From: Dehalococcoidia bacterium
Lineage (GTDB): Bacteria; Chloroflexota; Dehalococcoidia; GIF9; AB-539-J10
NCBI GenBank assembly: GCA_030611085.1
Contig: JAUWQI010000004.1
Span: forward strand, 1,731-65,730
DNA length: 64,000 bases
Direction of reading: 5' to 3'
Shown: positions 2,086-42,847 of the stretch, one piece after another
Numbering within the stretch: position 1 is the stretch's first letter
Layout: each line of letters begins with the position of its first letter
Program-made: the position numbers and the translations under genes
Notes under the pieces: generated by a model
What the model saw: only the letters and a program-made list of their open reading frames with translations
Told to the model about the DNA's origin: nothing
Database searches by the model: none

Positions 2086-3444
2086 ATGACAACAGAAGTT
2101 CACAAGCCATGGCAAAATGAGAAGGTAGCAAAGCTCTTGGAGGCAATGCTTCAGGGAACCATCTTGGAGATAAAGCCGCAGCTTAATGTGCAATCCGAGC
2201 TAGGTTTTTCCTTTCCCAGTGTAAACCAGCTTCTCAATATTACAGATAAAGAAGCAGTGGCAATCCTGGAGTCTTTGGCTGAGGAGGGCATATTGGTGAA
2301 GAAGTTCTTCGACAAGTTCCTCCATTGTCCTCAGTGTGGGTCAATGAATCTCAGGCCTGTTTACTGCTGCCCCAAATGCGGCTCGGGCAATATCATCCGA
2401 GGTAGAGTGCTAGAACATTTGGTATGTAAATATGCTAGCACAGAGGATGAGTTCCTTTTTAAGGGTAGGCTAGTATGCCCCAAATGCAAGCAGGAATTGC
2501 ATACCGTGGATGCTGATTACCGCAGCCTGGGAGTGTTATACAAATGTCATGGCTGTGAGGAGATATTCAATCAGCCAACGATAAAATGGAGCTGCCTCAA
2601 GTGTTCTTCCATTACTGTCGGGGGTAAAATCGCTGAGGTAGACGCTTATTCCTATTCCCTGAATAAGGAGAAAAGAAACTGGCTACAATTTGAGATTAAG
2701 CCTAAAGCACGGCTTTTACAGTTTCTCCAAAGCCGGGGATATGAGGTAAAGGAAAATGTCAGGGTGAAAGGCGGGTCAGGTGCAGAACACGCCTTCGACA
2801 TTTTAGCCACCAGAGATGATGGCATCGTGCTGCATAATATCGCCATTGGCGTTGAGGTAACTGACAAGCCTCTGAGTCTAGAGAAGGTATTTGGCTTTGA
2901 TGACAAAACCTACGACACTGGTATTCGGGATAAGGTGTTAATTGCCATCCCTGGAGTTGCTCCAGAGGCAAGTCGCTTCGCTGCCAGACAGAGAATAAAA
3001 ATACTGGAATCTAAAAATTTAGAGCCATTTCTGGCTAGTAGCATTTTCCCCCCGATAGCTAGAGAACCTGAAACTGAACTGGAGAGGGTACCCTTCCACT
3101 TCAAATCAAGGTCAGAGCTCATTAGCGATCTCCAAAACCGTGGCTATGAAATAAAAGAGAATACCAAGATAATAGGCAGGTCGGGTGCAGAGCATAGCAT
3201 AGACATTCTAGCTACCAGGGATGATGGCATAGTGATCTATAATATTATCATTGCCATCGAGATAACAGATAAGCCCATAGGCATAGACAAAGTGTTTGAT
3301 TTCGATGACAAAGCCTATGATTGTGGTATTTTCGACAAGGTATTAATCGCAGTCCCAAGCTTAACTCCAGAAGCCAGCCGCTTTGCCCAAAGGCAGCGAA
3401 TTAAGGTATTCGAAGCCGAGACGCTTGAGTTGGAGTCACGCTAG
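2086..3444 (+). CDS. zinc-ribbon protein with tandemly duplicated C-terminal domain, function unknown
   Basis: 452-aa ORF. Paired Cys motifs (CPQCGS..CCPKCGSG, CPKCKQ..CHGCEE, CLKCSS). Two ~100-aa repeats: RGYEVKENVRVKGGSGAEHAFDILATRDDGIV... and RGYEIKENTKIIGRSGAEHSIDILATRDDGIV... Confidence 0.7.
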   Translation: MTTEVHKPWQNEKVAKLLEAMLQGTILEIKPQLNVQSELGFSFPSVNQLLNITDKEAVAILESLAEEGILVKKFFDKFLHCPQCGSMNLRPVYCCPKCGSGNIIRGRVLEHLVCKYASTEDEFLFKGRLVCPKCKQELHTVDADYRSLGVLYKCHGCEEIFNQPTIKWSCLKCSSITVGGKIAEVDAYSYSLNKEKRNWLQFEIKPKARLLQFLQSRGYEVKENVRVKGGSGAEHAFDILATRDDGIVLHNIAIGVEVTDKPLSLEKVFGFDDKTYDTGIRDKVLIAIPGVAPEASRFAARQRIKILESKNLEPFLASSIFPPIAREPETELERVPFHFKSRSELISDLQNRGYEIKENTKIIGRSGAEHSIDILATRDDGIVIYNIIIAIEITDKPIGIDKVFDFDDKAYDCGIFDKVLIAVPSLTPEASRFAQRQRIKVFEAETLELESR

Positions 3445-31622: not shown

Positions 31623-31744
31623 CTTCTTGGTGACTTTAGCGGAGTGGACCCACCCGTTCCCATCCCGAACACGGAAGTGAAACTCTCCAGCGCAGACGAT
31701 ACTTAAGGGGCGACTCTCTGGGAAAATATGTCGTTGCCAGGAAG
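31623..31744 (+). rRNA. rrf: 5S ribosomal RNA (stand-alone, no 23S upstream)
   Basis: cccacccgttcccatcccgaacacggaagtgaaac core. The terminal helix cttcttggtgac pairs with gttgccaggaag. Confidence 0.85.
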
Positions 31745-31746
31745 CT

Positions 31747-32943
31747 CTATTTCTCTTCATTCTTTAATTTCGATATGTGAATGGAGTTGGTTACTTCGAG
31801 GCTGCCATACTCCATGACTTTATCAACCAAGTCTTTGCTCCAGAGACTATTTTCGACAATGCGTGTGAGCGATGTTGTATCAAGCTGAGAAACCTCTGCC
31901 CATTTATTTGCCTCTTTAATTGTACTTTCCAGTTCCTGGCGCTCGGCATCATTCTTGCCCGGAAATTTTAGTTTTTCATCAAATCTGACCCTTGCTTTGC
32001 AATCGTTGCCTTTTATGACCTCAACCTCTTCTCGCCTGGCATAATCAAGCATTGCCTCTCTCACCTTTCCCATCTCGTCTTTTATCCTTGCCTCCTCATC
32101 TCTGAGAGCTACATACTTATTAACGAGTGCGACCCCTGGCTCATTGAGATACTCGTTTACCGGTAGAGTTTCTACCTTGACGAAATGCCTTCTCAGCGGG
32201 CAGAGGTCGGGATATTCGCACCAAGCACACAGTCCAGATTCTCTTGGAGGGAAATCCTGAGCCGACTCTATCTCATTAATCAAGCTCTTAGTATCTTGAA
32301 CTAAGTTTGAGATAGCTTCAGGGGTGCGGTAGGAAACCAGTTCCGTGTCGAAGGCAAGATAGTGCCAGATGAGCCTGATACTCTTAATATCTGGCCACTT
32401 CTTCTGGACTCCAATCTGGTATAAAGCAAGCTGCCTATCATTATCCGCTTGTTCTTGGCTGAGCAGATACGCTGAGGTTTTGTAATCATGAATTTCATAA
32501 ACATCATCTTCGGTTCGCGACAGTCGGTCTATATAGCCCGTCATCCTGTACTTATTCTCGTCATCCAAGGAGAAATTAAGCCCCATCTCGGTGCCTATGG
32601 TTATATCTGAGCCAAAGGGCGAATATCGCTTGTAGTAAGTTTCAATCAGCTTTTCGCCCAAAGCCCTGTAGTGCTCCTGCGTTAGCTCTTTCCTTGTGAT
32701 AACAATTGAGTCGTGCCAGTTCTCCCGCCAGATTTTGTTGTAGTAGGTGAGTAAATCGGGCAAGCTATTTACTTTGGTAAGCCTGACGTCGTCATAGCAC
32801 TTCTTCAAGGTCTCATGAACCATCGTGCCCAAGAAGCCCTCAACGCCTTCGATATCCCGCTTAATCCTGTCCCGATAGCGAAGCTTGTACTTCAAGGGAC
32901 ACTCCTTATACATACTTAGCTGCGAATGAGAATAGATCGGCAT
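31747..32943 (-). CDS. Cas4/RecB-like PD-(D/E)XK nuclease with Fe-S Cys pattern and ~130-aa C-terminal extension
   Basis: MPIYSHSQLSMYKECPLKYKLRY, IDRL...EIHDYKT (D..D/ExK) and CAWCEYPDLC. Confidence 0.7.
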   Translation of the reverse strand: MPIYSHSQLSMYKECPLKYKLRYRDRIKRDIEGVEGFLGTMVHETLKKCYDDVRLTKVNSLPDLLTYYNKIWRENWHDSIVITRKELTQEHYRALGEKLIETYYKRYSPFGSDITIGTEMGLNFSLDDENKYRMTGYIDRLSRTEDDVYEIHDYKTSAYLLSQEQADNDRQLALYQIGVQKKWPDIKSIRLIWHYLAFDTELVSYRTPEAISNLVQDTKSLINEIESAQDFPPRESGLCAWCEYPDLCPLRRHFVKVETLPVNEYLNEPGVALVNKYVALRDEEARIKDEMGKVREAMLDYARREEVEVIKGNDCKARVRFDEKLKFPGKNDAERQELESTIKEANKWAEVSQLDTTSLTRIVENSLWSKDLVDKVMEYGSLEVTNSIHISKLKNEEK

Positions 32944-32948
32944 AGTTA

Positions 32949-34127
32949 TTACTCACTATCGGTTTCTGACTCGTACACTTTCCTGAGTATTCCTTCAACG
33001 TCATCACGTGCCAAACCGGCTTTTTGCATATCTCTATAAGCCTGCTCACGACTAGAGCCACTTTGCTTCATGGCCTGCGCAGATTCGTAAGGATTTGTCC
33101 CGATGAATGCTTCAATATCCCGCCACCTAACGGGTTTTGGTCCGTATACTTGATCCAGAACCCTCTCAACGTTCTCCTGGTTTAGGCCAGCCCTCTGCAT
33201 TTTCTCATGAGTTTCTTTTCTAGTCAGATTACACTCCTGAAATCTCTTGGTAGCTCCCCAAGGATTGTTGACTATCTGACTTCTATTCGGAAATCCTTTG
33301 CAATACTCCGGCTTGTCTGTTTTCAGCTTGCACAAGTAACATTTCGGATCATCTCCTGTGCAAATCTCACCTTCATCCTCAGCGCAAAAATGCCAAATGT
33401 AGCTATCAACATACTTGCGTGGTTTCCCCAGAGCTTCTGCTATTGTTATCCCTGTTTTCCTGATATCTTCTGGCTTTCTGCTGGCCCTCACCTGAGCTCT
33501 ATTAAGGTTGATTCTATTGAGAAACGCAATTGTGTGGGTATCGGGTTTGAACTCATCGATACCTATATTGTTGAAAAACTCGCAACAGGTCGCTAGTCCC
33601 ACGCTGCGAAGCTTAAACGGGCTATTAGGGTCGGTGAAACATTTTATCAAAGGGGCGTCCGCAGGCCGGACATAGCACTTGCACAACGGGTCATAAGCTG
33701 CTGCAGGCAGATAGCTCTTGATGAGGGTACAGACAGACCCATGCGTAGACATAATCTGCTGGAACACTCTTGCATTATTGCGAATAGCAAGCAGTTCATC
33801 TTCAAGGAATCTTGCCTTCACCTTACTCTTGTACTGAGCGAATAGCTTTCCAATGTCGCTGTCGGTTAAAGCGGCGACGCTATTCACGTTGTAATTAAAT
33901 AAGCTGACTTTCAGAGCAGGCAAGATCTTTTTCACAGATGCCCAATTTGCCTGCCTTGTCAGAATAGCCCTGCATAATCCCTTAAATATATAGTTATCGT
34001 CTCCACGAAAGTCACTAGGGGATGTTCGAATATTTTTCAATACTTTAGGCTTTTCAACTTGCAATGTATCCCTGATCCTGTCTATTAACATCTCACAATC
34101 TGGTTTGGACAGAATATTAATATTCAT
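32949..34127 (-). CDS. Tag-like (3-methyladenine DNA glycosylase I fold) domain protein with Cys-rich and repeat C-terminus
   Basis: By-eye alignment to E. coli Tag: RQANWA vs QAGLSW, AIRNNARV vs IIGNARA, VGLATCCEF vs VGTTICYSF. Two C-terminal repeats MQ(R/K)AGL..(N/D)VE.(V/I)L. RBS aggagg. Confidence 0.45.
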   Translation of the reverse strand: MNINILSKPDCEMLIDRIRDTLQVEKPKVLKNIRTSPSDFRGDDNYIFKGLCRAILTRQANWASVKKILPALKVSLFNYNVNSVAALTDSDIGKLFAQYKSKVKARFLEDELLAIRNNARVFQQIMSTHGSVCTLIKSYLPAAAYDPLCKCYVRPADAPLIKCFTDPNSPFKLRSVGLATCCEFFNNIGIDEFKPDTHTIAFLNRINLNRAQVRASRKPEDIRKTGITIAEALGKPRKYVDSYIWHFCAEDEGEICTGDDPKCYLCKLKTDKPEYCKGFPNRSQIVNNPWGATKRFQECNLTRKETHEKMQRAGLNQENVERVLDQVYGPKPVRWRDIEAFIGTNPYESAQAMKQSGSSREQAYRDMQKAGLARDDVEGILRKVYESETDSE

Positions 34128-34136
34128 TTCTACCTC

Positions 34137-34457
34137 CTATTTTCTGCTGAATCTTCCAGTTCCATCTACCCTCTCCCTCAAAGCCTTCAGATTCACCACG
34201 TCTTCCTTGTTATATTCTAACAGCAAACTCAAGGCATCTTGGTCCCCATAATTCTGATATTTCCACCACAGCCATATTGCCGCCAGTCCGTCAACGCCCT
34301 GTAGCTGCCTGGAAATTCCCAATTGTTGCTCTACTGCCTTGAAGCCACCATAAAGATTATTCCTCCAGCAGTCATACATCAGGTCATGATGGCAAAACTC
34401 AGACTCAAGGTCTATTCCCAGAGAAGAATCAATGAAGGGAAGGTCGAATCGTTCAGT
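34137..34457 (-). pseudogene. 3' fragment of a second RNase H-like exonuclease gene copy
   Basis: Encodes ..FDLPFIDSSLGIDLESEFCHHDLMYDCWRNNLYGGFKAVEQQLG.., a paralog of the C-terminal ~105 aa of 35590-36081. It has no 5' half. Confidence 0.7.
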
Positions 34458-34636
34458 GTGTTTACCCCAGTAAACCTGAGGTCGTCATAGCACTTCTTCA
34501 AGGTCTCGTGAACCCTCGTGCCCAAGAAGCCCTCAACGCCTTCGATATCCCGCTTAATTCTGTCCCGATAGCGAAGCTTGTACTTCAAGGGACACTCCTT
34601 ATACATACTTAGCTGCGAATGAGAATAGATGGGCAT
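34458..34636 (-). pseudogene. 5' fragment of a second Cas4-like PD-(D/E)XK gene copy
   Basis: MPIYSHSQLSMYKECPLKYKLRYRDRIKRDIEGVEGFLGTRVHETLKKCYDD is nearly identical to the start of 31747-32943. It then runs into the exonuclease fragment out of frame. Confidence 0.75.
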
Positions 34637-34733
34637 CTTAACCTTTGTTAGTCTCCCTTCGGATTGTTTGTTGGCACCCTTGTTCTTTACCCTACTCCCT
34701 TTGCGTGTTTATTCACAGGCAGTTCTCACCGAG

Positions 34734-35555
34734 TTAATCCAAATTGTTTCTTGGTACTAGTCGGATATGCCACTTATCCAGCTCTTCTAAGAACCACTCG
34801 TAAAATGCTGTTGGATTTCCTATATAAGGAAGCCTTACACTCCGTTGTATCCAAGCATCATTTACTTCAGTCCGGTTCCCACCTTTATCTTTTACCCGTA
34901 GTCCTCCCCACCTATCCCGAAGCTTCTCTGTGAGCCTGTATTGCTTCCCCTTCCCACGTCGTTTACCAATGGGTATGCATTTTGTCAATCTTCCAGATTT
35001 CTCATCCTCACGCTTTCCAAAGACTATAATATCTGCGTCGTTATATTGCCCTCTTGTATGTGCATTCCTACCACGTTCCCCTTTGTTTACAAGGTCTTTC
35101 GCGGAAATTGGCTTACCATCTACAATGTAAAGACCGATGATAGCATAGACAAGTCGATCTTCCTCTGGTTCACGCTTAATAGGCTTAAGACCTGCATAAA
35201 AAGCCAATATGTCACCATCATTTAATTCACGAATGGGCTTGCCCCTGTGGTGAGTCTTCTTAGAAGAGAAATCACACCCATCAACATCACCATATGATAA
35301 TTCATAGAAGTCGGGGTCAAGGTGCACGTTCTTGCCCTTTAATTTGTCCGGCGGAAGGCGTTTCTCAAATTCCTCACAATCGCAATACTTATTGAACTCA
35401 TCGTAAGTCGTTCTATGCTCTGGACAAACTTGCCTGCCTTCTGGTATGGGAACGTAAACGAAATCATAAACGGGGTCAGTGGTATTGTTATTTACTGGAG
35501 CATTCCAGCCACCAGATGTTAAATCTATACCTACTCTAACCAGTAATGCGTGCAT
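34734..35555 (-). CDS. hypothetical 273-aa protein (possibly Nmad3-like nucleotide-modification-associated domain)
   Basis: MHALLVRVGIDLTSGGWNAP...VHLDPDF...GDILAFYAGL. It reminds me of the Nmad3 family, but this is from memory only. Strong RBS aaggagg. Confidence 0.4.
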   Translation of the reverse strand: MHALLVRVGIDLTSGGWNAPVNNNTTDPVYDFVYVPIPEGRQVCPEHRTTYDEFNKYCDCEEFEKRLPPDKLKGKNVHLDPDFYELSYGDVDGCDFSSKKTHHRGKPIRELNDGDILAFYAGLKPIKREPEEDRLVYAIIGLYIVDGKPISAKDLVNKGERGRNAHTRGQYNDADIIVFGKREDEKSGRLTKCIPIGKRRGKGKQYRLTEKLRDRWGGLRVKDKGGNRTEVNDAWIQRSVRLPYIGNPTAFYEWFLEELDKWHIRLVPRNNLD

Positions 35556-35589
35556 GTTTTCCTCCTTTCTTTAATATTGGGGTGCTGTT

Positions 35590-36081
35590 TCACTCCAGCC
35601 TCTCCCGCAAAACCTTCAGATTTACCACATCCTCTTCATTATACTTCAGCAGTGTAGTCAACGCATTTTGGTCACCTCCATTCTGGTATTTCCACCACAG
35701 CCATACCGCCCCCAATCCACCGACGCCCTGTAGCTGCCTGGGGATTCCTAGCTGTTGTTCTACTGCCTTGAAGCCGCCAAAAAGGTTATGCCCCCAACAG
35801 TCATACATCAGGTCGTGATGGCGAAATTCAGCCTCAAGGTCTATTCCCAGAGAAGAATCAATGAAAGGAAGGTCAAACCGCTTGCCGTTATAGGTATAGA
35901 TTGCATTTACGCCGTTGAGGGATTCGAGAAGATTCTCTCTGGTCACGGCTTCGCCCACTAATTGAATGAGCTTATCATCTTTGCTATTGCACAGATAAAT
36001 GCCGACTACGGTTATATAATCATAAAACCGAGATAAGCCAGTGGTCTCTATATCAAGGTATGCATCAGTCAATTGCTTCAT
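35590..36081 (-). CDS. RNase H-like (DEDD/YprB-type) 3'-5' exonuclease domain protein
   Basis: MKQLTDAYLDIETTGLS...YTYNGKRFDLPFI...HHDLMYD is the exonuclease motif I-III pattern. Confidence 0.7.
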   Translation of the reverse strand: MKQLTDAYLDIETTGLSRFYDYITVVGIYLCNSKDDKLIQLVGEAVTRENLLESLNGVNAIYTYNGKRFDLPFIDSSLGIDLEAEFRHHDLMYDCWGHNLFGGFKAVEQQLGIPRQLQGVGGLGAVWLWWKYQNGGDQNALTTLLKYNEEDVVNLKVLRERLE

Positions 36082-36117
36082 AGCTCGTGCCTTTAGATTG
36101 AAGTGTAGCACATACCA

Positions 36118-36149
36118 GTGACAGCTAGATTGTCACAAACTGCTATTTT
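36118..36149. promoter_or_regulatory. inverted-repeat operator-like motif GTGACA-N7-TGTCAC plus conserved tail
   Basis: gtgacagctagattgtcacaaactgctatttt lies upstream of the exonuclease operon. It is near-identical to 39047-39078. Confidence 0.55.
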
Positions 36150-36207
36150 GTTGGTATATGCCTATCGTTGTTGGAACAGCCTCGCTATATAGATATTGTC
36201 CTCTTTC

Positions 36208-36432
36208 TTACTCCAGTAGCTTGCGGAACTTCTCACGAGTAAGGGAGGCTTCTCTCAATATTTCTCGCAGTGTTCCCACCTTTATCTCTCGATGTCTGGG
36301 AATGGCCACAGTGTGGTTGGTCTTTGGGTGATAGTAAACCATATGGCTTCCTCTTTGCCTATCGAACACGAATCCTGCACGCTTCAGAGCTGCGGTCACC
36401 TGCTGCCAGGTAAGGCTGGGCAGTCGGCTCAC
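36208..36432 (-). CDS. hicA: HicA-family mRNA interferase toxin
   Basis: 74 aa. LKRAGFVFDRQRGSHMVYYHP...IPRHREIKVGTLREILR. Confidence 0.8.
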   Translation of the reverse strand: MSRLPSLTWQQVTAALKRAGFVFDRQRGSHMVYYHPKTNHTVAIPRHREIKVGTLREILREASLTREKFRKLLE

Positions 36433-36632
36433 ACGACTACCTCACGCTCCTTAATCTGTGGTAATGATAACCCTCGCTCCTTGAGACTCTCTAGATAAAC
36501 CTCTATGGCCTCTCTGATATTAGCCATAGACTCCTCAATGGTTTCCCCTTGGGAGATACAGCCAGGTAAGGAAGGCACATACACAGTATAGCCACCTTCT
36601 TGCTGAGGCTCCACGATTACCCTACATTTCAT
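36429..36632 (-). CDS. hicB: HicB-family antitoxin (short form)
   Basis: MKCRVIVEPQQEGGYTVYVPSLPGCISQGETIEESMANIREAIEVYLE. RBS aaaggagg. 4-nt overlap with hicA. Confidence 0.8.
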   Translation of the reverse strand: MKCRVIVEPQQEGGYTVYVPSLPGCISQGETIEESMANIREAIEVYLESLKERGLSLPQIKEREVVV

Positions 36633-36766
36633 TTTGCCTCCTTTGTTATCAAAAGTATCTCTTATGCCCCATGCTTGGGTTAATTCTAGTATGACCCAGG
36701 CTCGAAAGCAATGCTTCACAGTGTTCATATTATCATTTACATGAGCGGCAGCATCTAGCACAAATG

Positions 36767-37198
36767 CTATTTCCTTTTAGAGACTTCCAGCGACTCTGAT
36801 TGGGCGGTAGCTTCTAATTTATGGTCGGAAGAAGAAAAAGTTATCGTTGAGCCAAGCCTTGTCTTGAGAGTCAATGCTGAGGCAAGGTGGATGGCGTCGA
36901 ACCCCCTGAGGCTGTGTCGTTCAGCAAGCGCGCCAGCAAGCTTCGATACTGGCCATTAGACATCTATGGCAAAGTAGGCACCCCAGTGCTGCTGCAGATT
37001 AGTTATCACGGTGTGATACTGCTCATCGGTAAAATCGCCTTGTCGGTGTTTCCTGGCAAAAGCGGCACAAGCTTCGGCGTATGCCACCTGCGAGGTAGCG
37101 ACAACTCTAGCTCCGTCGAACAAAGCCTTCACTTCGTCGGAGCCATCTTCTCTAACATACAGCTTCACTAAAGAGCTCGTATCTAAATAAAGAATCAT
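36767..37198 (-). pseudogene. vapC: VapC (PIN) toxin interrupted by an in-frame TAA
   Basis: MILYLDTSSLVKLYV...YFAIDV-TAA(36956-36958)-WPVSKLAGALAERHSLRGFDAIHLASAL... all reads in one frame. Confidence 0.7.
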
Positions 37199-37461
37199 CG
37201 CCTGTCTTCAATAACAATCTCGGAAACAGGTTTACCACTAGCTGCTATGGGTTCTGGTGCGATTGGTTTGCCACCTTCCCAAATTGCCAGTCCTTCTTTG
37301 ACCATCTCCGTCAATCGGCTGTAATTGTCAGACTCTTCCACAGGAACAATAAGCGCCACATCGCGGCCGCGATTGGTAACTACAACCTGTTCTCCACTTC
37401 TGACAAGAGAGATATAGTATTTGAGATTATTCTTTAGTTTTCTAATGCCTGCTTTGGCCAT
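37195..37461 (-). CDS. Phd/YefM-family antitoxin
   Basis: 88 aa. KLKNNLKYYISLVRSGEQVVVTNRGRDVALIVP. 4-nt overlap with vapC. Confidence 0.75.
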   Translation of the reverse strand: MAKAGIRKLKNNLKYYISLVRSGEQVVVTNRGRDVALIVPVEESDNYSRLTEMVKEGLAIWEGGKPIAPEPIAASGKPVSEIVIEDRR

Positions 37462-37632
37462 ACCATCACCCCTTTTGTGGCAACATTATAAAGATTTTGT
37501 ATCCACAATGTCAATCTTTAATCGCCCAGTGCAGCCACTCCTATCTGGGAAAGGTGGCATTTTACTTGGTAGTAGGCAAGATAACGAGGCTGTGACAGGT
37601 CATGCTGCTTTGAAAGAGTATGTCGCCATATT

Positions 37633-39009
37633 CTACACTCGTTTGCCACGGCTGTTCACGAATTTGACGAAATCATCTAGTTTTTTCATAGTACAGACGA
37701 TTTTATCCACCAACCCTTCTCCATTAGTATTCCGGACTTCATCAGGTTCGAAACGTCTTGTTATGCCGAAGGTAATATCATCATAGTCAGCGCCATCTCC
37801 CTCAATCGCTTCCCCTATTTCACCGATGTACTTGACCAGGTCTTGCCTTTTCTTGAACTCGCTTAATTTTACTTCCCACTTATCTTCTGGGAGAAAAGAT
37901 TTGTGATTCTCCTCACTTTGATAGTAGTACAAATCAATGAAGAACCCCTTGGGCATTTTAAACAATATACGGGATATCTCGTCTTTATCTGTCTTTATCT
38001 TTCTAAGCAGCTTCTTCCTCAGGGCATCATTTGTGACACGAACCCAAACGGAAAGGCCTTCGCTACCTAATTGAATACACCGGTGCGCCTTGACTTCTTT
38101 AACTTTCTTATCAGAAGTTCCTTTATTGTAAACAGGGAGGAAATAAAAAGTCGCCCAATCATACTTGTTTTTACCTTTTCGAATTCCTTCCGGGGGGCCG
38201 CACTTAAGATAACATTTCTTAGTCCTCTCAGATATATCCTCGGATAGAGCCAGCATCTTCCGTTTCAGTTCTTTCCTTATTTCTTCTTTTTCCTTCGCAT
38301 CTAGCTCTTTTTGCTTCTGCTCGTTAAAAAAATCAAAGTACTTGTTATCATTAAAGCCAGTGAATCCAGCCAGCCCTTCCAAATATAGAAAGTCGCAGAA
38401 TTGCGTTATTAAGAATTCGTTTTTTACATTGAGCAATCGCTTGTTTTCAGGTTCATCCTTTAATTCGCTAAAGAAGGTATATAACTGCTTCCATGAAATG
38501 ACAGCAGGCTTGTGCAGATCTCCCAGTATCCCTTTGTGATTCTTAATCTGATTTTTGTCTAGTCCATCATAGCGCTTACTTTCAATAAGAATTGTCCACT
38601 TTTTCCCAAGCAACCACGCATCAGGGATGCTTGCCTCAGTTTCAGGCCTTGTGTTTTCCGCGTAGATTTGTTCAGTAAAACCGTGGGGGACTATACCCAA
38701 TATTCGCTTAGCTGTCTCTCGGCCAAGATACTTGTCACCGGGATTCCCTTGCTGAAGTAGGAACTTATCCACTTTTGGGGGCACAAGCTTGACTCCTATT
38801 TTCCCGCTCAGCCAGCTAATAAACCGTTTACATATCTCACCATTACCATCGGTAAGTTCTAAGACATTAATAAGAGCCTTGGTTACATTGTTCTCAAGTG
38901 CTTTTGTTTCTTCAGTATCACCGTTCTCCGTATCACCGCCTTTTGTCGGTCCTCTATAATATTCAAATATGTTGTGACCCTTTATGTTGTGACCCTTTTC
39001 ATAATCCAT
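37633..39009 (-). CDS. 458-aa protein with N-terminal PD-(D/E)xK nuclease-like motif, otherwise unknown
   Basis: ..EASIPDAWLLGKKWTILIESKRYD.. (D..ExK). RBS aaaggaggg. It lies downstream of the WYL regulator on the same strand. Confidence 0.55.
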   Translation of the reverse strand: MDYEKGHNIKGHNIFEYYRGPTKGGDTENGDTEETKALENNVTKALINVLELTDGNGEICKRFISWLSGKIGVKLVPPKVDKFLLQQGNPGDKYLGRETAKRILGIVPHGFTEQIYAENTRPETEASIPDAWLLGKKWTILIESKRYDGLDKNQIKNHKGILGDLHKPAVISWKQLYTFFSELKDEPENKRLLNVKNEFLITQFCDFLYLEGLAGFTGFNDNKYFDFFNEQKQKELDAKEKEEIRKELKRKMLALSEDISERTKKCYLKCGPPEGIRKGKNKYDWATFYFLPVYNKGTSDKKVKEVKAHRCIQLGSEGLSVWVRVTNDALRKKLLRKIKTDKDEISRILFKMPKGFFIDLYYYQSEENHKSFLPEDKWEVKLSEFKKRQDLVKYIGEIGEAIEGDGADYDDITFGITRRFEPDEVRNTNGEGLVDKIVCTMKKLDDFVKFVNSRGKRV

Positions 39010-39046
39010 TCTATTCCCTCCTTTGTTTTTAGAATTACATACCTTT

Positions 39047-39078
39047 GTGACATCTAGATTGTCACAAATTGCTATTTT
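39047..39078. promoter_or_regulatory. inverted-repeat operator-like motif GTGACA-N7-TGTCAC plus conserved tail
   Basis: gtgacatctagattgtcacaaattgctatttt lies between the WYL gene stop and the 458-aa gene start. Confidence 0.55.
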
Positions 39079-40059
39079 TTCTTATAGACATCCAGCATAG
39101 CTTTAGCCGTCTCGATAATATCCTGGCGCAGTTCCTCTGGCTCCAGCACCTCCACCTTCTCTCCCCAGCTCAATATCCAGAAACAGAGTTCGTCTGTAAC
39201 GGTCACCCGCAGTGTCATTATTACCGAGCCATCCTTTTGCCTCTCCACCACCTGTGAGGAATGCCATACTGTCTCCTCCATTATCCTGGCTATTTCAGGG
39301 TCAAACTTCAGCTTAACCGTCTTGGCCTCACCATAAACAGTGATGCCCCAGGAAGAACCCAAAAATTCATTAGCATCAAAACCATGTGGCATAACATAAT
39401 GCTCAAGGGTTGGTTCTATGCTTTCTATGCGCTCTATCTTGAAGGTGCGTATTTCATGGGCACGATGGCAATAGGCAATAACATAGCTTGAGTGCCCTGC
39501 CGCCGCTGGCTCAATAAAATATGGCTCTATTGTGCGTTCAGTTGTCTTCTCTGCCTCCAGTGCCCTATAGATTATTTTAACTCGTTGCTGGGATATCCAC
39601 GCCTCAGCTAGAGTCGCCAGGGTGCGCAAATACCTGTCGTCCTTTGGTTGTTTCTGCATCCACTCCATGGTCTTTTGAATTTGCTCTCTCAACGGAGGTG
39701 AGACTATGGAATTCAACTTCATGAAGGTAGAGGCTACATTGGGGTCATAGCGATGGGTGTAGCTGAGCATCAGCCGGGCAGCGAGAAAAACATTCAAGGC
39801 TTCAGGCAGGGTAAAGTGGATGGGGGGGGAGAAGATAACCTTCTGTGATACCGCGCTTAGTGCTCTCTTCCCAGATGGGCACGCCCAGCTCAGTTTCCAG
39901 GGCAGCCAGGTCACGATATGTAGTTCTTTTGCTGACTTCACACCGGCTAGAGATATCTTCTATCTTCAAACCCCTGGGATTCTGGTAGAGCAGGTGCTCT
40001 ACTTTCAGCAAGCGCGCCGTTCGGTCTGTTTTCCGTCTTTCAGCTTCACTCAATTTCAC
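39072..40059 (-). pseudogene. HTH-WYL-WCX transcriptional regulator split by a frameshift at a C8 tract
   Basis: The HTH ORF (39802-40059) and the WYL ORF (39072-39941) overlap. Removing one C from the C8 run (39822-39829) gives a continuous ..EGYLLPPIHFTLPEALNVFLAARL.. (~328 aa). Confidence 0.75.
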
Positions 40060-40147
40060 TGTCTCTCATTAGCCCAAAGTTGCCTGATTTTCATTATAAC
40101 ACCTGCCATAAGAATATTCGTAAAAAGCTAAAACTCCAGCCAAATTT

Positions 40148-40166
40148 GTGACAGACCGTCGTCACA
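40148..40166. promoter_or_regulatory. related imperfect inverted repeat GTGACA-N7-GTCACA in WYL/AAA+ divergent promoter
   Basis: tttgtgacagaccgtcgtcacatg. It shares the tttGTGACA half-site with 39047, but the spacing differs by 1 nt. Confidence 0.3.
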
Positions 40167-40225
40167 TGCCCATGCTATTCTGATTCTTAGCTGCAAATTA
40201 AAGAGATGGGGAGGGTGAATAAAAG

Positions 40226-41602
40226 ATGACCGCGGAAGAACGTTTTCTGGAGGCTATCGACGAGGAAGATAACGAGGAGCTTGAAGCGCCTGCTCCGTAT
40301 GACCGGTTTGCCAGGAGGCATGAAAAGCTCCAATACAAGAACAAGTCTGCTAGCGAGAATTTCTTGGGCAAAGGCAGCCGAGCAAATGCAGTAGCCATAC
40401 TGCCCAGATACTACGGTGAACTGCTGACCTGGGCACTCGATCGCTACATTGAGAAAGAGGGGTGGAAGGTTATTCGAATCCTCGGCTACCGTGGCCGTGA
40501 ACCCATATATATAGATGTGAGCACGGACTGCGATAAGTGTGAGGACCTTTTGATGAATGGCCAATTATTATTAGAGAAGGGTGATAGCCATTTCATAGTT
40601 ACCGTGGACATAAACCTGCAGTGGAGAAATTCAGTCCAGGTAGAAGGTTCTGCCAAAAGGAGAAAGGAAATAGAGAAATTCGCCGACGGCGTCAAGGCTA
40701 TCGCCAAAGAGCAGAACTTCTACCGGGGTAAGAAAATTGAGTTCGGAGGGCGTATTCACTTTCTGAATATCAAAGACAGGTCGTGGGACAGCATTATACT
40801 GGCTCCTGCCATAAAGCGAGAAATCGAGGCTAATACCATTGATTTCTTGAACAGGAGGAAACACTGGGCAGAATATGGGATACCCCAGAAAAGAGGCGTT
40901 CTGCTCGCAGGTGAGCCGGGGACAGGGAAAACAGTAATCTGCAAGGCGCTGATGGCAAATGCCAATGGAGTAACCTGCATCACGACCAATGCCTATGGGT
41001 TGAGCGCTGATGAGTACATCACCGAGCTTTATGAGATGGCTCAAGACCTCAGTCCATGTATCGTTTTCATCGAGGATATAGACCTAATAGGGCTAAACCG
41101 GGAGGAGTATCTCTACCAGCATGGCCCTGCGTTGCTCTCGTTGCTCAACGTACTCGATGGGGTTGAAGAGAAGCAGGAAATCGTAACCGTGGCTACCACC
41201 AATAACCTGCAGACGCTGGATAGGGCCATAAGCCAGCGCCCATCGCGCTTTGACCGCGTCGTAAAGCTCTCTCTCCCACTACTGGAAGAACGGAAAGAAC
41301 TAATCAGCTCATTGTGTCAGAAAATACCCGTAGATGAACCCACCCAGGATTATATTGCCCGTAGGTCAGAACACTGCACCCCAGCTCAGCTACAGGAGGT
41401 TATCTACAGCCTGGTCATAGAGCACTCTGATGAACTATCCGCTGCTCAGTCGCCAAATCTTGAATTTGGCAAAGATGATATTGACCGAGTCATCTCAAGG
41501 ATAAATGGCAGGAATGGGCAGCACATAGGTTTCAATATCTCTGGTAATCACAATGGTGACAAGATGGCCTGTGTGGAAGCTTTGGAGCAAAGCAAGTGTT
41601 GA
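40226..41602 (+). CDS. AAA+ ATPase (classic AAA clade) with ~220-aa uncharacterised N-terminal domain
   Basis: GVLLAGEPGTGKTV (Walker A), CIVFIEDIDLI (Walker B) and ATTNNLQTLDRAISQRPSRFDR (SRH). Confidence 0.8.
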   Translation: MTAEERFLEAIDEEDNEELEAPAPYDRFARRHEKLQYKNKSASENFLGKGSRANAVAILPRYYGELLTWALDRYIEKEGWKVIRILGYRGREPIYIDVSTDCDKCEDLLMNGQLLLEKGDSHFIVTVDINLQWRNSVQVEGSAKRRKEIEKFADGVKAIAKEQNFYRGKKIEFGGRIHFLNIKDRSWDSIILAPAIKREIEANTIDFLNRRKHWAEYGIPQKRGVLLAGEPGTGKTVICKALMANANGVTCITTNAYGLSADEYITELYEMAQDLSPCIVFIEDIDLIGLNREEYLYQHGPALLSLLNVLDGVEEKQEIVTVATTNNLQTLDRAISQRPSRFDRVVKLSLPLLEERKELISSLCQKIPVDEPTQDYIARRSEHCTPAQLQEVIYSLVIEHSDELSAAQSPNLEFGKDDIDRVISRINGRNGQHIGFNISGNHNGDKMACVEALEQSKC

Positions 41603-41781
41603 GCAGACTGCTAAGAGTGTTTTTGATTCCACCATTGTTAATTGCTGTGACTGCCTTGGTCATCGTTGGGCTCAAAGATTTTAACTTACTGAGCGTAATA
41701 ATTCCCAAACTCATAGTGGCAATTGTTATTATTGGGATTCCGATACTTATCGTGAAGAGAGTGTTTTTCCCTAAATACTAA
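41596..41781 (+). CDS. small 2-TM membrane protein (61 aa)
   Basis: The GTG start overlaps the AAA+ stop (gtgttga). The sequence is strongly hydrophobic. Confidence 0.4.
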   Translation: MLSRLLRVFLIPPLLIAVTALVIVGLKDFNLLSVIIPKLIVAIVIIGIPILIVKRVFFPKY

Positions 41782-41802
41782 GAAGAAAGGAGAGTGAGAA
41801 GG

Positions 41803-41949
41803 ATGAAACATCCGGTAAGGTGTCCAAAATGCGGAGGGACCGGCCAGGTACCTAGAAAAGGCTTGCCGCCTATGCTGAAAGGGGCAATCGGGATTCGTCA
41901 GCACGACGAATGTCCTGTTTGCAACGGCGTAGGTTACGTCGAAGACTAG
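41803..41949 (+). CDS. 48-aa mini-protein with two DnaJ-type CxxCxGxG zinc-finger motifs
   Basis: Own translation: MKHPVRCPKCGGTGQVPRKGLPPMLKGAIGIRQHDECPVCNGVGYVED. RBS aaaggagag lies upstream. Confidence 0.5.
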   Translation: MKHPVRCPKCGGTGQVPRKGLPPMLKGAIGIRQHDECPVCNGVGYVED

Positions 41950-42364: not shown

Positions 42365-42388
42365 GTAGTGGCGGGGTTCATCCCCGCC
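42365..42388. repeat. hairpin repeat gtagtGGCGGGGttcatCCCCGCC, copy 1
   Basis: It matches 42796-42819 at 23 of 24 positions. Confidence 0.75.
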
Positions 42389-42731
42389 TTATACTCGCCA
42401 AGAAGAATTGCCTGATATGTTACCCATCTATCTGAACTAAATCACTGGCAGCACAATGATAAGCATTTTCATTCCGCAGGAGCTCCGGGGTTTAATCTAA
42501 CCACATTGATAATCAGTAAGTCGCCCTTGTAATAGTGGGGTAAATCATCAAAATATTTGGTATCGGTAATTCAGGAGAAGGCATATAGCGGGGTTCGGAA
42601 GATAAAGCCATAGGTTTCTACGGGATGATTATGCCTGATTGGTGTCTCAGTTGATATCACCGCTGTGGTCTAAATGCTTATAGTAAATTATAACAACAAA
42701 ATCTGTTAGAATATTCGCAGATTGCTTGATT

Positions 42732-42795: not shown

Positions 42796-42819
42796 GTAGT
42801 GGCGGGGTTTATCCCCGCC
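42796..42819. repeat. hairpin repeat gtagtGGCGGGGtttatCCCCGCC, copy 2
   Basis: See 42365-42388. Confidence 0.75.
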
Positions 42820-42847
42820 TGATCCCTACAAGCAATATTGAAGGCAC

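Follow-up and report, generated by a model that had tools for sequence, protein, structure and literature searches.

Analysis of a 64,000-nucleotide (nt) window of an uncultured Dehalococcoidia bacterium (contig JAUWQI010000004.1 of assembly GCA_030611085.1, positions 1,731 to 65,730, all coordinates below being those of the window) reveals that a short palindrome, GTGACA-N7-TGTCAC or its N6 variant, lies at the same place in three promoters of one genomic island. This palindrome is very probably the cognate site of the adjacent HTH-WYL-WCX regulator, and it would couple three sets of genes, namely an RNase_H_2 operon, the gene of a protein of 458 amino acids (aa) and a divergent AAA+ operon. 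The site is assigned to the neighboring regulator because it occupies fixed positions in 48 loci and because the spacing of its half-sites follows the clade of the WYL protein. As to the mode of action, an activator triggered by single-stranded DNA (ssDNA), of the kind of DriD, SiwR and PafBC, is probably the best fit; it is preferred on account of the strict phasing of the site, the missing -35 box, the sequence affinity of the protein and its conserved residues.

Sequence and distribution of the sites

Two 32-nt segments, at 36118–36149 and 39047–39078, differ at 2 of 32 positions and each contain one exact GTGACA-N7-TGTCAC (sites A and B, Table 1), as described in a first-pass annotation made from the sequence alone, the coordinates and sequences of which we confirmed. 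These are the only 2 exact matches in the window; shuffled versions of the window contain 0.04 on average, and none of 100 shuffles reaches 2. The scan of the genome for this pattern, which the annotation had proposed, covered the whole assembly (1.16 Mb, 30 contigs, 83% complete) and returned sites A and B as the sole copies. Allowing up to two mismatches and other spacings adds a third site only; beyond these three none has one mismatch or fewer, the matches with two mismatches are located in coding or unrelated contexts, and no further member of the regulon was found in this genome. The distance to the ATG of the gene downstream is 36 nt from site A (RNase_H_2 gene, 36081) and 37 nt from site B (458-aa gene, 39009); all genes at these two sites are on the minus strand, and the TAG stop codon of the WYL gene (39072–39074) falls inside the 32-mer of site B. 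The third site is situated in the divergent promoter between the WYL and AAA+ genes, where the first-pass annotation had noted a weaker relative at 40145–40166. The site is real, but its weakness is not: the closest WYL orthologues (84–86% identity) keep an N6 form, GTGACgACnGTCTGTCAc, at the equivalent position, so that by this comparison it is a conserved N6 variant and no decayed copy.

The exact pattern was found in 23 of 100 relatives, compared with 9 for a reversed control pattern, and the identical 19-mer, spacer included, recurs in five further genomes, which belong to four other genera. Intergenic matches in the relatives fall into three recurrent contexts: directly 3′ of the stop codon of a WYL orthologue, 5′ of RNase_H_2 genes whose products start with ...AYLDIETTG, and in the intergenic region that a WYL gene shares with a divergent AAA+ gene. 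The other exact matches fall within coding sequence or unrelated surroundings and resemble chance occurrences. WYL orthologues have a patchy distribution (33 of 101 genomes) and thus belong to accessory DNA.

The neighborhoods of the WYL gene were compared in 20 and then in 48 Dehalococcoidia loci containing an orthologous HTH-WYL-WCX regulator. This yielded 33 unique sites in the promoter shared by the WYL gene and its divergent neighbor, and 22 unique sites within a few nucleotides of the WYL stop codon. The divergent gene encodes an AAA+ protein in about 30 of the 48 loci, and the gene 3′ of the WYL stop an RNase_H_2 protein in about 15; a UDG-superfamily protein, a PDDEXK_4 nuclease, a HEAT-repeat protein and HicB also occur in the latter place. 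The gap that separates the half-sites (N5, N6 or N7) tracks the WYL clade. Indeed, both sites of one locus have the same gap in 13 of 18 cases, including the rare N5/N5 pairs of loci L059 and L070; of 8 proteins with an "RQ" recognition helix, 7 go with an N7 site, and those with VN[IV]RTIYRD pair with TTGACA and a gap of N5 or N6. The sub-clade of the window combines N7 after the WYL stop with N6 in the AAA+ promoter. Such co-variation is support rather than proof, since the sites share their ancestry with the WYL proteins. Nevertheless, together with the linkage in 48 loci it supports the earlier proposal of one regulon under the island's WYL protein, and the fixed positions around WYL orthologues provide the conservation in homologous islands for which the same annotation had suggested looking.

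Promoter geometry

Examination of the sequences downstream of the sites reveals a strict phasing. In the reading direction of the driven gene, the pattern TAnnnT begins exactly 10 nt past the proximal half-site in 31 of the 33 divergent-promoter sites, and the relaxed form nAnnnT in all 33; after the WYL stop, nAnnnT is found at this distance in 19 of 22 sites. Most of the other offsets from 4 to 16 have 0–2 TAnnnT (offset 15 has 4) and no more than 8 nAnnnT. The TG of an extended -10 element is present in 25 of the 33 divergent-promoter sites. This distance of N10 remains constant while the internal gap of the palindrome varies, and it is the one observed for all three promoters of the window (Table 1).

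A scan with the sigma-70 consensus detected no -35/-10 pair at site A, site B or the AAA+ site, and the position expected for the -35 box coincides with the center of the palindrome, where nothing resembles TTGACA. The same scan recovered a perfect TTGACA-18-TATAAT upstream of vapB in the same window (37485–37514, minus strand), from which it follows that canonical -35 boxes occur in this genome. The promoter of the WYL gene itself contains TGtTATAAT at 40093–40101, without a good -35 box.

The regulator

The WYL gene is interrupted by a frameshift in a C8 run of the coding strand (G8 on the plus strand, 39822–39829), where orthologues read CCCCCCT. Removal of one C restores an intact protein of 329 aa, 84–86% identical to its closest orthologues; the extra C may reflect an error of sequencing, a gene inactivated recently or a tract subject to phase variation. 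Pfam searches identify HTH_11 (E-value 3.1e-7), WYL (4.8e-18) and WCX (3.8e-23) domains, that is the HTH-WYL-WCX architecture of PafBC class A, and intact orthologues are 320–341 aa in length. Searching the PDB sequences with the WYL profile gave DriD (3.5e-18), PafC (2.7e-15), PafBC (6.9e-14), BrxR (9.4e-5) and CapW (0.0079), and no BrxR or CapW model is among the PADLOC matches. In sequence the regulator thus stands closer to DriD and PafC, with BrxR and CapW more distant.

The recognition helix contains an RxxxR motif (R58, R62) that is invariant in the orthologue alignment and corresponds to R37/R41 of DriD, in an alignment of sequences and not of structures; the triplet GTC is kept in every variant of the half-site. 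The residues contacting ssDNA in DriD (Y192, R204, W206 and R207) correspond to Y, R, F and K, respectively, all invariant or nearly so among the orthologues. The WYL strand reads SYVIAYCH...RTFKIERI where CapW and BrxR have RWHVR, a motif absent from this protein. Nor does the system follow PafBC, in which two paralogous chains form a heterodimer on a non-palindromic site, each locus containing one WYL gene and a two-fold symmetric site.

Proposed mechanism and comparison with known systems

From these observations we infer binding of the site, an ssDNA signal and activation rather than repression, as follows. A dimer of the adjacent regulator would recognize the palindrome, which would form the upstream half of three promoters devoid of a -35 box and endowed with an extended -10 element. 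The proximal half-site, (T/C)GTCAC, would occupy about -28 to -23 and the distal one about -41 to -36, so that the palindrome would straddle the place of the -35 box. By analogy with DriD, SiwR and PafBC, ssDNA arising from DNA damage or foreign DNA would bind the WYL domain, and the ssDNA-loaded dimer would bind its site and recruit or adapt the housekeeping RNA polymerase. The adjacent DNA-processing genes would thereby be switched on.

DriD of Caulobacter crescentus resembles the present system in several features. It is a single-chain wHTH-WYL-WCX protein of ~327–329 aa and the best sequence match in the PDB; its homodimer binds ATACGAC-N7-GTCGTAT, a palindrome that also has an N7 gap, with R37/R41 reading the two guanines of GTC (PMC10853764), as RxxxR would do here on a GTC/GAC core. 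Moreover, in all DriD promoters the site overlaps the place of the missing -35 box and keeps one and the same distance to the -10 box (PMC13004042), a site is found in or near the regulator's own promoter in both cases, and the ssDNA-contacting residues are conserved. The two differ in the half-site, (G/T)TGACA here and ATACGAC in DriD, and in the core, TGAC-N9-GTCA here and CGAC-N7-GTCG in DriD. They also differ in range, 2–3 local promoters being set against recA, recJ and didA across the genome (PMC10853764, PMC13004042), and the present system belongs to Chloroflexota.

The promoters controlled by PafBC in mycobacteria conform to tGTCgg(N10)tA(N3)T, a "-26 element" followed by a canonical -10 box without any -35 box, and R46/R50 of PafB read the GTC (PMC8635444). 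The arrangement tGTC..-N10-TAnnnT, the reading of GTC by RxxxR and the order of the HTH, WYL and WCX domains are shared. On the other hand, PafBC binds a non-palindromic site as a heterodimer, PafB alone being on the DNA and PafC on sigma region 4, and its regulon is large (PMC8635444, PMC11804915), whereas the present locus has one gene and a full palindrome. SiwR of Mycobacterium smegmatis is a homodimer on a 19-bp imperfect palindrome located between -35 and -10, with an essential -26 region, and activates the adjacent operon only (PMC10693628). It has in common with the present system the 19-bp palindrome and the control of an adjacent operon, and SiwR itself answers ssDNA and genotoxic stress; it differs by its DinB/YfiT-like targets, by a conserved triplet GGA instead of GTC and by its actinobacterial origin.

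Four points weigh against the proposed coupling and its mechanism. Firstly, the regulon is local, with 2–3 sites per genome, which is the situation of CapW, BrxR and SiwR and not that of the global regulators PafBC and DriD. Secondly, the WYL gene itself appears to be transcribed from an extended -10 element lacking a good -35 box; promoters of this kind may thus be active on their own in the lineage, and the targets might need repression instead. Thirdly, four relatives have the site 5′ of RNase_H_2 but no detected WYL gene; two of their assemblies are incomplete (G001, 72%; G030, 75%) and two near-complete (G006, 94%; G081, 96%). Finally, the WYL gene of the window is frameshifted and, if this is real, the switch may be broken or phase-variable here.

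Alternative explanations

It is possible, if rather doubtful, that the site is the operator of a BrxR/CapW-type repressor, the analogy drawn in the first-pass annotation. A dimer would then sit on the promoters of unstressed cells, ssDNA would release it and the island genes would be de-repressed. CapW and BrxR are indeed wHTH-WYL-WCX repressors that act through palindromes of ~20 bp on adjacent accessory or defence operons, and CapW senses ssDNA (PMC11662680, PMC9122601). The present regulon is likewise local and island-borne, with toxin-antitoxin genes near; its site, spanning about -41 to -23, could block the polymerase, and a -35 box need not be present for an extended -10 promoter to function, as that of the WYL gene suggests. 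However, the protein has SYVIAYCH in place of the RWHVR motif of these repressors (PMC11662680) and a much weaker sequence similarity to them, the profile E-values for BrxR and CapW being 10^13 to 10^15 times weaker than those for DriD and PafC. Furthermore, the strict N10 distance is kept despite the drifting gap of the palindrome, which would be unexpected for a simple occlusion operator, and CapW and BrxR have no known phasing to the -10 box. The preferred CapW site (oligonucleotide as read here) includes TATAAT and so extends over a -10-like box; no such overlap exists for the present site. The repressor analogy is therefore not supported in the form given, in view of the absence of RWHVR, the better scores of DriD and PafC and a geometry of activator type without a -35 box.

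A second alternative, that the palindrome is mainly a junction of recombination or cassette exchange, or an inert duplicated relic of a WYL 3′ end, appears very improbable as an account of the palindrome, although part of its evidence is sound. The window contains three copies of a WYL 3′ end followed by the site: it is intact at B, reduced to a stop-codon relic at A and cut within the palindrome at C (Table 1). At site A the segment AAAATAGCA represents a relic, because it has the context of a WYL stop codon and no WYL gene precedes it; site A matches the junction of WYL stop and promoter in locus L048 of another genome at 95% over 43 nt, which exceeds its match to site B. The relic at site C, located 5′ of hicBA, breaks off after the initial 3 nt of the palindrome and looks like a recombination breakpoint inside it. 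Thus both A and C resemble the L048 allele more than the window's own. These are short nucleotide relics only, no longer relic of a second WYL gene being detected at the protein level in the window; nonetheless, the junctions at A and C indicate that at least two WYL modules meet there, which makes the island a mosaic. WYL 3′ fragments followed by the site are also present in G005, G049 (contig C61) and L112, and the gene after the site differs among genomes.

Several facts argue against reducing the palindrome to such a junction. It also occurs, always in phase with the -10 box, in divergent promoters without a nearby WYL 3′ end. Moreover, its sequence is kept even where the flanks have changed and the WYL protein is down to ~50% identity. 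The genes annotated here include no recombinase that was recognized, and ordinary homologous recombination would also give breakpoints at a conserved promoter. Judged by conservation, the functional part of the 32-mer is the palindrome together with the -10 region, and AAAATAGCA is WYL stop-codon context. The possibility raised with the original description, namely that the 32-mer is just the duplicated 3′ end of a WYL gene, thus applies to AAAATAGCA and fails for the conserved palindrome and -10 box.

Finally, the idea that the hairpin ends the WYL gene as a transcription terminator or RNA element is hardly credible and was rejected: the scan flags site B on the plus strand, as a 9-bp stem followed by TTGCTATTTT, but this T-run is on the strand opposite the genes, the transcribed minus strand having GGTATGTAATTC after the stem and no U-tract, the motif is also present in AAA+ promoters, where no gene ends, and Rfam has no match at the motif, its only hit being a 5S rRNA at 31626–31742.

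Genes of the island

The features of the island are collected in Table 1. The genes located 3′ of the sites in the various loci have DNA-processing functions in common (RNase_H_2, Cas4-like and PDDEXK_4 nucleases, UDG, HhH glycosylase-like), a content that, as far as annotation can tell, fits a damage response or an anti-phage action alike.

Table 1. Sites, promoter elements and genes of the island (window coordinates).
Feature	Position	Strand	Remarks
Site A palindrome, GTGACAATCTAGCTGTCAC (read on minus strand)	36118–36136	-	Exact match, 5′ of RNase_H_2 operon
Flank of site A, AAAATAGCAGTTT	36137–36149	-	AAATAG, relic of WYL stop context; TTT, within the A/T flank conserved at the distal half-site
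Extended -10 of promoter A, TGcTACACT	36102–36110	-	TGTCAC-N10-TACACT; hexamer exactly 10 nt after TGTCAC
Site B palindrome, GTGACAATCTAGATGTCAC	39047–39065	-	Exact match, 5′ of 458-aa gene
-10 hexamer of promoter B	39031–39036	-	TGTCAC-N10-AATTCT; 10 nt after TGTCAC
Third site, GTGACA-GACCGT-CGTCAC (N6), GTGACAGACCGTCGTCAC	40148–40165	+	WYL/AAA+ divergent promoter, facing AAA+ gene
Extended -10 of AAA+ promoter (TGcTATTCT region)	40174–40181 (hexamer 40176–40181)	+	CGTCAC-N10-TATTCT; 10 nt after CGTCAC
Site C relic	36759–36791	-	3′ end of a second WYL allele (last ~8 codons plus stop), then GTG; 94% identity to L048 WYL 3′ end
HTH-WYL-WCX regulator gene	39072–40059	-	Split by one extra C in C8 run
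RNase_H_2 operon (operon A)	31747–36081	-	Putatively driven by promoter A
RNase_H_2 exonuclease	35590–36081	-	Operon A
Nmad3	34734–35555	-	Operon A
Two duplicated gene fragments	34137–34636	-	Operon A
HhH-glycosylase-like protein, 392 aa	within 31747–36081	-	Operon A
Cas4-like PD-(D/E)xK nuclease, 398 aa	31747–32943	-	Operon A
458-aa protein	37633–39009	-	Putatively driven by promoter B; candidate PD-(D/E)xK by eye (IPDAW...ILIESK)
AAA+ operon	40226–41949	+	Divergent from WYL gene
AAA+ ATPase	40226–41602	+	AAA+ operon
61-aa hydrophobic protein, probably membrane	41596–41781	+	AAA+ operon
51-aa DnaJ-type zinc-finger protein	41794–41949	+	AAA+ operon; two CxxCxGxG motifs

Within operon A, the region of the duplicated fragments contains a 292-nt copy of the 3′ part of the RNase_H_2 gene (82% identity to 35589–35880) and a 190-nt copy of the 5′ part of the Cas4-like gene (92% identity to 32754–32943). 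The operon is therefore a tandem fusion of two modules, each with an RNase_H_2 gene, a middle gene and a Cas4-like gene in this order, the middle gene being either Nmad3 or the 392-aa HhH-like gene; relatives carry either of these middle genes or none (L055, L056, L070, L086). The 458-aa protein has no match in Pfam, NCBIfam, PADLOC or the PDB sequences, and its BLASTP comparison with the PDDEXK_4 protein found as cargo in L036 is not significant (E-value 0.16). The AAA+ gene was considered as IetA, the ATPase that accompanies the IetS protease in the IetAS defence system, and rejected, the IetA/IteA models giving 56 bits for a cut-off of 510 and no protease gene following. In L042 the gene divergent from WYL is a zinc-finger mini-protein similar to that of the AAA+ operon.

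Between sites A and B the island contains hicBA and a pair formed by vapB and a truncated PIN gene; the latter, a toxin gene 3′ of vapB (36956–37198), is shortened to 80 aa. The left edge of the accessory region is marked by a stand-alone 5S rRNA (31626–31742, Rfam score 94.6 bits) directly adjacent to the stop codon (31747) of the island's last gene. At the right edge, 5′ of a cinA-like gene, a 28-nt GC-rich hairpin repeat, GTAGTGGCGGGGTTCATCCCCGCCTTAT, is present in two copies of 93% identity (42365–42392 and 42796–42823). A short repeated element with GTCATTGCGAG(G/C)... adjoins the islands of L003, L016 and L036 and is found in contig C23 of the genome near position 3299; it may be similar to repetitive extragenic palindromic elements.

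The idea of a lineage devoid of SOS response was discarded, LexA scoring above cut-off in 49 of 61 relatives, though the present assembly, 83% complete, yielded none. Since LexA is common in the relatives, the WYL circuit would be accessory beside SOS.

A bolder and rather unlikely extension would regard the succession of WYL stop, palindrome and -10 box as a damage-inducible dock for DNA-processing cassettes that are swapped among Dehalococcoidia, with the operon of AAA+, membrane and zinc-finger proteins as the unchanging partner in a hitherto undescribed module that ssDNA would trigger, for repair or against phages. The cassettes would be the RNase_H_2/Cas4-like nucleases, the UDG and HhH glycosylase-like genes, PDDEXK_4 and the 458-aa gene, and exchange breakpoints would fall inside or just 5′ of the palindrome, as at sites A and C.

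Significance

A literature search for WYL regulation in Dehalococcoidia returned no relevant paper. The palindrome is very probably the site bound by the WYL regulator, and its position at three promoters matches that of the known WYL activators triggered by DNA damage, of which type of switch it would be a further example. The comparison also suggests that the actinobacterial arrangement of PafBC and SiwR (-26 element, N10, -10 box, no -35 box) and the alphaproteobacterial palindrome of DriD represent two aspects of a single, older mechanism, present in Chloroflexota as well. For the WYL family of Dehalococcoidia, this analysis leads to a concrete and testable promoter formula, (G/T)TGACA-N5-7-TGTCAC-N10-TAnnnT, and it defines a conserved module, in which the WYL gene is flanked by a divergent AAA+ gene on one side and nuclease or glycosylase cargo on the other, as a candidate for repair or defence.

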